NCBI GenBank assembly: GCA_951406725.2
Contig: OX597828.1
Span: 56,544,001-56,608,000, forward strand
Source of the DNA: Octopus vulgaris
Lineage: Eukaryota
DNA length: 64,000 bases
Direction: 5' to 3'
The position numbers and the translations under genes were made by a program. The notes under the pieces were generated by a model. That model saw only the letters and a program-made list of their open reading frames with translations, ran no database searches and was not told where the DNA came from. Below are positions 36,251-37,546 of this stretch, piece after piece. Position 1 is the stretch's first letter. Each line of letters starts with the position of its first letter.

Positions 36251-36804
36251 AAATAACAACAATAATATAACAACCGGTTGATGATGCAGATTAAAATTTA
36301 TCTTTAGCATATGAATACAAACAAATTACAGAATATCCCTACGCCCGGCAAACCATGACGTTTAATTTGCATGCGGATTGGTCAAAACTGTTTCTAAAAA
36401 TTCAGCTTGTTGGAGCGTTCTAAGAGCTACTGTAGGTGTCAAGAACTCAACTGTCAAATTCACTTTTAATTTGTTTATTACTACGAACTTATGAAAGCAT
36501 GGATTGGACTTTATGAAAATTATAAAATGTTTTTTTAATGTTAAAATGCCATAATAAATAACATGAAAACCAGACCATATTTATCCAACTGATATATTAA
36601 TATATTATTCTAATATATATATATATATATATAGAATGGTTGTATACTGTCAATCTAACAAGAACGTGACAGTAGGGGGTACACCACCGTTGTATAGCCC
36701 TAGGAGGCATCGAACGCCTCCTGACGGCTTCGACACATTTTTTCCCTGTGTCCTTATATACATATATGAAGGGGAGACAAACACCCCCGGCCCTCGGAAC
36801 TGCA

Positions 36805-36850
36805 TCTAGGGACACCGTGTTTCTGGATCATTGTCCTTCATCGGCCTAGA
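36805..36850 (-). ncRNA. type I hammerhead ribozyme (U4C core variant)
   Basis: Reverse complement of the motif at 37277-37322; stem I extends via ctgc/gcag. Confidence 0.8.
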
Positions 36851-37276
36851 GTAGCAGACACCGGTCGGCTGGTGATATTTGCCTCGACTTCATAATTGTA
36901 TATATGTATACTCAGTGAAGTTTATTCACTGATTATCAAAATAAGAAATATTGAATTTCTAAATCTCTCGTAGAGACATGTACAGTGGTGGGGCGATAGG
37001 ATGGTTGTATACTGTTAATCTAACAAGAACGTGACAGTAGGGGGTACACCAACGTTGTATAGCCCTAGGAAGCATCGAGCACCTCCTGACAGCTTCGACA
37101 CATTTTTTCCCTGTGTCCTTATATACATATATGAAGGGGAGACAAACACTCCCGGCCGAGAGATTTAGAAATTCAATATTTCTTATTTTGATAATCAGTG
37201 AATAAACTTCACTGAGTATACATATATACAATTATGAAGTCGAGGCAAATATCACCAGCCGACCGGTGTCTACTAC

Positions 37277-37322
37277 TCTAGGCCGATGAAGGACAATGAT
37301 CCAGAAACACGGTGTCCCTAGA
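37277..37322 (+). ncRNA. type I hammerhead ribozyme (U4C core variant), predicted cleavage after GUC at 37316
   Basis: tctagg-CCGATGA-a-gga-caatga-tcc-a-GAAAC-acggt-GTC-cctaga; stem I tctagg/cctaga; near-palindromic stem III acac-g-gtgt. Confidence 0.8.
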
Positions 37323-37546
37323 TGCAGTTCCGAGGGCCGGGGGTGTTTGTTTCCCCTTCACATATGTATATAAGGACACAGGGAAAAAATGTGTCGAAAC
37401 TGTCAGGAGTTCGATGCCTCCTAGGGCTAAACAACGGTGGTGTACCCCCTACTGTCACGTTCGTGTTAGATTGACAGTATACAACCATTCTATCGCCCCA
37501 CCACCGTACATGTCTCTACGAGAGATTTAGAAATTCAATATTTCTG

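Follow-up and report, generated by a model that had tools for sequence, protein, structure and literature searches.

The question raised by this locus of Octopus vulgaris is what kind of element left a 365-nt unit on both strands of one short array, with a hammerhead ribozyme (HHR) in each arm, and by what route that unit was copied into its place. An earlier, sequence-only reading of the window, i.e. the whole stretch of 64,000 nucleotides analysed, described the array as a retrozyme or a non-autonomous Penelope family. The present analysis supports this identification, and the two names are supported as denoting one thing here. The unit is multi-copy, non-coding and self-paired, contains a covarying type I HHR and has ends of the type left by Penelope-like elements (PLEs). 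The array is likely to be an insertion of a non-LTR retrozyme that is not autonomous and was mobilised in trans by the RT/GIY-YIG protein of a PLE, most likely one of the Neptune type.

The features of the array and of its surroundings are listed in Table 1. The presence of the unit on both strands, with periods of 365 nt (minus) and 362 nt (plus), was borne out by a BLAST comparison of the arms (E-value of 3e-164). The (TA)n tracts on both flanks and the single type I HHR in each arm were confirmed too. The earlier description of the arms as head-to-tail tandems needs qualification, since they comprise only 1.44 and 1.08 units. The arms point outward, and their complementarity is 98% over 253 nt. 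The shorter period of the plus arm is due to a 3-nt deletion, seen in 1–2 of 164 aligned segments. The unit of the window is non-coding, with a longest ATG frame of 56–57 aa, and has no LTR framing; its length of 365 nt and GC content of 0.44–0.45 lie within the 150–450 bp and below the 50% GC by which retrozymes are recognised. In a transcript passing through both arms, the plus HHR is predicted to pair with its own antisense copy. There is one HHR per strand at this locus, and therefore no monomer would be released from it. The array is an aged, dead-end copy of its element family. An inverted pair of tRNA-like SINE heads was also detected to the right of the array, at 37668–37739 (+) and about 38316–38388 (-) (ARAGORN, relaxed threshold).

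Table 1. Positions of the array and of neighbouring features within the window
Feature	Positions	Strand	Basis
Broken Neptune-type PLE ORF2 with stops and frameshifts, outside the unit; 62.6% nucleotide identity to the intact family	35186..36267	+	
Left (TA)n target tract	36613..36632	.	sequence
Inverted arm, 527 nt, 1.44 units, period 365; terminates 3' at phase 340 of 365, the "no-tail" site	36631..37157	-	
Type I HHR of the minus arm, U4C core, predicted cut 36811/36810	36805..36850	-	
Head-to-head junction of two 5'-truncated arms, overlap of 1–2 nt	37156..37157	.	
Direct arm, 392 nt, 1.08 units, period 362; terminates 3' at phase 30, the "tailed" site	37157..37548	+	
Long stem, about 37223–37260 with 37334–37372, HHR at its tip	37223..37372	+	prediction
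Target site (phase 92–108) of the 1.7-kb ORF1-only element, empty here	37248..37264	+	
Type I HHR of the plus arm, predicted cut 37316/37317	37277..37322	+	
A/C-rich PLE-type "tail", 55 nt, spanning the two fixed 3' end sites	37494..37548	+	
Right (TA)n target tract, 58 copies	37547..37662	.	
Second fragment of the broken PLE, right of the array	38692..38820	+	

The plus HHR comprises a 6-bp stem I, the core CCGAUGA, stem II with the loop CAAUGA, GAAA, a near-palindromic stem III and GUC. The near-palindromic character of stem III, recognised earlier, was confirmed by a predicted self-duplex energy of -9.3 kcal/mol. The core sequence had also been written correctly, but the U4C change within it went unflagged. 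In addition, both HHRs of the window share a private U-to-A substitution at the base of stem II, which results in an A.A opposition; T is present at this position in 41 of 43 aligned copies, and the two copies with A are those of the window. This opposition may be tolerated, because 7 of 14 aligned copies lack pairing at this position. A search of the window at Rfam gathering thresholds returned no matches, and the isolated 86-nt HHR region did not fold better than its shuffled versions (z +1.41). The monomer is predicted to form a branched, rod-like structure whose tip bears the HHR; against 40 shuffles each, the circular form of copy L002 had a z of -7.0 and that of the window unit, which is more decayed, a z of -3.3. 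The active HHR fold differs from the minimum-energy fold of the monomer (-7.3 vs -17.7 kcal/mol), which, like the result for the isolated region, counts against the HHR.

Covariation was assessed with 14 mutually related HHR copies hand-picked across several subfamilies. In this set, 91.9% of cells were paired and 10 of 17 pairs had compensatory, both-side changes; slid partners gave at most 47.8%, and none of 500 shuffles matched the observed pairing. As the copies are related and hand-chosen, this statistic is to be taken as support and not as a probability. The length of stem III varies across copies with its self-complementarity mostly kept, and a self-complementary stem III of changing length is the design of dimer-type HHRs (PMC4209133). 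The U4C core (CCGATGA in DNA) was found in 97 of 100 HHR copies among the matches listed and in 135 of 150 parsed motifs, and all seven copies with a 5-nt loop II among the matches listed keep U4. Since CpG decay proceeds from C to T, U4C is a lineage trait rather than a result of decay. The U4C substitution lowers activity in vitro and still allows viroid infectivity (PMC3088659). Judging by the U4C core and the weak palindromic stem III, the HHR of the family is probably a slow cutter assisted by dimerisation or by a protein. Further hammerhead-like motifs, belonging to other families, are located at 47780 (+), 40199 (-) and 30650 (-) of the window; two of them have CCGA cores, and the motif at 30650 resembles the canonical-core HHR family of locus L048.

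It could be supposed that the HHR is now vestigial, a mark of descent from a pLTR or a retrozyme in a U4C lineage that spreads without cleavage. The fixation of U4C and the frequently unpaired base of stem II are consistent with this supposition, as is the finding that HHR cleavage is dispensable for the Poseidon PLE in vitro, where HHR mutants insert normally (PMC11167929). Yet compensatory changes in stems I and II occur throughout the U4C subfamilies, stem III remains self-complementary across its lengths, a young intact PLE of the same genome possesses the same U4C core, and U4C, as mentioned above, still allows viroid infectivity. We regard a vestigial HHR as unlikely.

The distribution of the unit was studied in the whole genome (2.80 Gb, 227 contigs). 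The BLAST search with the unit produced 1791 candidates, of which 40 were scored. An exact 19-mer of the HHR has 432 matches genome-wide and none for the reversed control, which indicates at least 432 HHR copies and establishes the unit as multi-copy rather than single-copy; the copies are dispersed on at least 23 contigs. A looser HHR pattern gave 690 matches genome-wide. The depth was 10–30-fold higher over 37465–37546, which pointed to sister subfamilies, and the variant hairpin of these subfamilies has 791 exact matches. The sister subfamilies (L153–L177, L207) are 59–80% identical to the unit, some flank included, and share its ends; their stem III ranges from minimal to 10-nt palindromes, their cores have U4 or C4, and the period is 351 in L207. 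For further analysis, 28 distinct top BLAST loci were combined with 60 loci from the 100 HHR matches listed; the resulting 88 loci, from which L007 and L019 were left out as duplicates, are a sample biased to HHR-bearing arms.

The 153 arms over these 88 loci were used for the statistics of ends. The 3' ends concentrate at two sites 55 nt apart, phase 30 (53 of 153 arms) and phase 340 (47 of 153), while the 5' ends are scattered across the whole unit. Tail-out two-armed insertions were found at 51 of the 88 loci. In 40 of them the two arms end at different sites, in a further 11 one of the ends could not be typed, and a pair of like ends was never seen, i.e. all 40 typable two-armed insertions are mixed. 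Directly beyond the outward fixed ends lies (TA)n in 97 of 126 cases, and 28 of 36 clean head-to-head joints have an overlap (microhomology) of 1–5 nt. The two arms diverge by 2.1–2.4% within one insertion vs 5.5% between loci, and rare alleles are common to both arms in 13–16% of cases within an insertion vs 0.3% between loci. Both arms of one insertion are copied from a single source. A simple fold-back model, which would always nest one arm within its partner, holds in neither direction: the tailed arm is at least 55 nt longer in 19 of 36 cases and not in 17. Two insertions, L013 and L027, lie outside (TA)n and have short direct flank repeats that may be true target-site duplications.

The origin of the arrays as satellite-like DNA, or by local inverted duplication through DNA-level rearrangement, should be mentioned here. 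Locus L003, where two changes are present in two of three units and absent from the third, looks as local duplication would make it, but the dispersal over many contigs, the fixed 3' and scattered 5' ends and the strict one-of-each pairing are against it. The end statistics largely refute this explanation, and its probability is negligible. The family has the tail between two fixed 3' ends, the inverted 5'-truncated copy and the microsatellite target that characterise PLEs, whose insertions are described as having an inverted truncated copy and a tail at one end (Craig et al. preprint; PMC8557442).

The array of the window sits in (TA)n after a broken PLE, 360 nt past its ORF; the adjoining arm is antisense to this ORF and separated from it by the (TA)n tract. 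No Pfam families were found in the three X-read frames of the broken PLE. The comparison of its 3' region with the pLTR of an intact PLE family gave a score of 170, and no homology is claimed because this is below the shuffled maximum of 176. The intact family was reached with a 67-aa piece of the broken PLE as a query. It has a 4.27-kb unit encoding overlapping ORF1 (454 aa) and ORF2 (775 aa) with RVT_1 and GIY-YIG, and its copies are 99.2–100% identical, which makes it very young (L133, L134 and 16 further loci; at least dozens of copies are open). The linker is Cys-rich and Zn-finger-like, and its sequence points to Neptune or Nematis. Insertions of the intact PLE, too, terminate in (TA)n: over 18 loci, 14 arms stop at one site and 6 at another, 46 nt away; TA-like sequence makes the outer of the two less sharp, and both arms of locus L142 stop at the same site. 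A U4C HHR-like motif was found in the pLTR of all 27 matched copies, with CCGAAGA in 25 of them.

These likenesses suggest another interpretation, namely that the copies are 5'-truncated pLTRs of an ordinary autonomous PLE. The ends, the tail, the inversion and the position of the HHR are all like those of PLE pLTRs, the window array lies close behind a PLE ORF, an arm at locus L203 abuts a truncated open PLE ORF, and the flanks covered span 1.5–2.5 kb. Upstream of the HHR, however, every long arm continues into another unit and never into ORF sequence. RT/EN matches in the first 90 loci were limited to the broken PLE of the window and three others 1.2–1.8 kb from the array. At L203 the ORF starts right at the tailed end of the retrozyme with no unit-like sequence after it, and in the window the arm is antisense and behind (TA)n. 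A blastn comparison of the unit with the intact 4.27-kb PLE showed no similarity, and nhmmer with an 11-copy unit profile found, in the window and 32 PLE-bearing loci, only inserted unit copies beside PLE ORFs. The tblastn search with PLE proteins in 90 + 50 + 8 loci gave no pLTR link, and at the loci examined no unit copy stood directly 3' of a same-strand RT-EN ORF as its pLTR; within the 1.5–2.5 kb of flank examined, no copy proved to be an ORF-attached pLTR. Truncated pLTRs are thus a very improbable source of the family. The open frame of L203 (3279–5084, minus strand) is long and represents a second type of PLE, which shares 30% identity with the intact family.

Returning to mobilisation of the retrozyme in trans, the intact PLE is a candidate type of mobiliser and no proven partner, because it shares no detectable sequence with the unit and is younger than the retrozyme insertions. 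As no autonomous PLE with a unit-homologous pLTR was found, the mobiliser is deduced only from the shared ends and target. The trans-mobilisation of animal retrozymes by PLE proteins has been proposed and is unproven, and the route to tandem and inverted PLE insertions is described as undefined (Craig et al. preprint; PMC7229834). In vitro, two internal RT starts of the Poseidon PLE define the tail, and both strands are cut and extended; the PLE protein is modelled as a dimer, and uncut RNA is its main substrate (PMC11167929). In the octopus, a source locus would produce an RNA longer than the unit, either an uncut multimer or a circle formed through HHR cleavage and a host ligase. The PLE protein, probably as a dimer, would cut both strands of a (TA)n tract, and, with each DNA end as a primer, reverse transcription would begin at one or the other internal start site. 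Head-to-head joining and repair of the resulting truncated cDNAs would leave an inverted, tail-out array in which a single side bears the tail. Slow cutting by the HHR would mean that most templates are read through.

The nature of the template can be narrowed by the position of the breaks. The arms cross the predicted cut site 130 times, and 5' ends fall there 3 times vs 3.3 expected; at the two cleavage phases there are 3 and 0 ends among 86 arms, with no pile-up. A cleaved linear monomer was therefore not the template. The earlier proposal of a "multimeric or circular RNA" source therefore holds as an either/or statement, a circle and an uncut multimer fitting equally well. A classic circRNA retrozyme, with efficient dimer cleavage in vivo, ligation of the 365-nt monomer and rolling-circle reverse transcription making the arms, would be a sub-case of mobilisation by a PLE, differing in the template alone. 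The read-throughs agree with it. Neighbouring units within an arm diverge about as much as arms compared at the same position (2.3% vs 2.0%, p 0.25), with subfamily-diagnostic cells agreeing in 95.5% between adjacent units of one arm vs 65.9% between loci; the predicted circle is strongly self-paired, and its size is like that of circle-making mussel retrozymes, 350–390 bp (PMC7229834). On the other hand, a homogeneous uncut multimer would produce the same pattern, from which divergence by template position does not separate the circle, and uncut RNA is the main PLE substrate in vitro. The hazard of 5' truncation climbs with length, reaching about 1 per 100 nt at 425–575 nt, and arms beyond 600 nt are few (7 of 86); from a simple, endless circle one would expect a constant hazard instead. 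The U4C core is a further point against efficient cleavage. Two or more HHRs occur in only 11 of 146 arms, with three at most, in contrast to the arrays of classic retrozymes. It seems that the circular template has somewhat less than an even chance. Contigs from four presumed-RNA runs contain family sequence that lacks the private base at 37303, has no joints and often passes into unrelated sequence, and they are uninformative on expression or a circle.

Two of the 88 loci, L039 and L065, contain a 1.71-kb insert at phase 92–108, just 5' of the HHR. This module is T-rich at its 5' end, has AATAAA close to its 3' end and contains a single reading frame, about 475 aa at the longest, that includes a CCHC knuckle. 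The zf-CCHC match of the module protein is weak (E 0.051), and its relatives carry zf-CCHC; its Atlas features gave 0.90–0.93 to CCHC and ZCCHC3-like clusters, and a putative RRM assignment rests on these features. One named homologue (Octopus bimaculoides, 59%) and 370 relatives without a name were found, none of the homologues being longer than the module protein. Close copies were defined by 24 genome matches with about 90% identity or more over the last 134 nt, and 23 of them, at 18 loci, adjoin one fixed site of the retrozyme or of a sister subfamily, the exception being L117. The module loci are L039 (569–2282), L065, L103–L116, L122, L147, L148, L211 and L212. In older subfamilies, the corresponding site is occupied by older versions of the module (L205, L206, L208), and most of 12 more distant copies, as well as L118–L121, have other flanks. 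The duplicates at the flanks measure 13 or 17 nt; among 10 loci with a single module, they are identical in only 3. Where modules stand in tandem, one copy of the target lies between neighbours. The wider family includes 13219 candidates, often in tandem with a period of about 1.8 kb (L118, L119), at other targets. A LINE RT query against 28 module loci matched only L111 and L113, outside the modules, and revealed no ORF2 partner. The nesting of the module at a fixed site of the retrozyme is well supported, and we hold it to be probable.

The module resembles Tx1-clade LINEs and HAL1 in its putative ORF1-like zinc-knuckle protein without ORF2 (PMC4494074, PMC5753468), and Tx1-clade LINEs in using one fixed target within another transposon and in tandems split by one target copy (PMC4494074). 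It differs from the latter in that its target is a ribozyme retroelement and its flanking duplicates are often unlike (PMC4494074). As no ORF2 partner was found, this is a likeness, and assignment to the Tx1 clade is not established. ORF1-only elements of the HAL1 type are already known (PMC5753468). At L109 and L122 a truncated module lies within an insertion whose ends are those of the retrozyme, a hint of co-mobilisation by the PLE route. A three-tier chain can be imagined, in which a Neptune-type PLE moves the U4C retrozyme, a LINE-derived ORF1-only element has specialised beside its HHR, at a site 13–29 nt upstream of it followed through diverged subfamilies, and a coding circle arises; as a whole, this reading has a low probability. 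If it were true, HHRs flanking the module (L108, L116, L147) would cut out an RNA of 1.2–2.1 kb, which could circularise and be re-inserted by the PLE protein as a protein-coding retrozyme circle. The coding circle is the speculative part of the chain.

Elements of this kind and their link with PLEs have already been published; what is unusual here is the U4C core, the two-end rule and the nested element. As in the metazoan non-LTR retrozymes (PMC7229834), the unit is short and non-coding with a GC content of 44–45%, PLEs are present in the same genome, the HHR is of type I with a weak palindromic helix III, and the predicted circle is self-paired. The sizes are also comparable, 350–390 bp in mussel and 330/350 bp in axolotl (PMC7229834). 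Unlike those arrays, the octopus family consists mostly of dispersed sub-dimer tail-out inverted (TA)n insertions, has a fixed U4C core and is known from sequence alone (PMC7229834). The origin and mobilisation of retrozymes as non-autonomous PLE derivatives were also argued in bioRxiv 10.64898/2026.07.22.740005, in a study of 31 vertebrates, 3 insects and a coral that relied on co-occurrence and on homology to pLTRs. In the octopus, the insertion signature ties the unit to PLEs, and the comparisons with pLTRs showed no homology. The rule for "active" retrozymes in that preprint, two consecutive HHR units, would miss the window locus with its one HHR per arm; eight of nine Xenopus retrozyme dimers reported there were without cleavage (bioRxiv 10.64898/2026.07.22.740005). 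The family shares partial tandems, an inverted 5'-truncated copy, a one-end tail, a microsatellite target and an HHR upstream of the ends with the EN+ PLEs Neptune and Nematis (PMC8557442; PMC11167929), but the octopus unit has no ORF and a tail of 55 nt vs 30–40 nt (PMC8557442; PMC11167929), and its HHR is of canonical size with an extended helix I, theirs being minimal (PMC8557442). The main text of PMC7229834 contains no cephalopod retrozyme, and cephalopod and mollusc terms are absent from the main text of bioRxiv 10.64898/2026.07.22.740005. In the squid genome, 235 Rfam hammerhead-1 matches were counted and left undescribed (PMC6962438). The literature outside Repbase, supplements and most subscription papers yielded no cephalopod retrozyme, no family-wide U4C animal HHR and no retrozyme-targeting element.

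The family-wide U4C core means that screens for CUGANGA and Rfam thresholds can miss entire ribozyme families. The pairing of one end of each type in 40 of 40 insertions suggests an asymmetric dimer, with each target strand using a different start site. The 365-nt substrate with its two predicted start sites, the (TA)n target and an intact candidate enzyme in near-identical copies are all available from one genome, so that the questions of trans-mobilisation and of the mode of insertion become directly testable.
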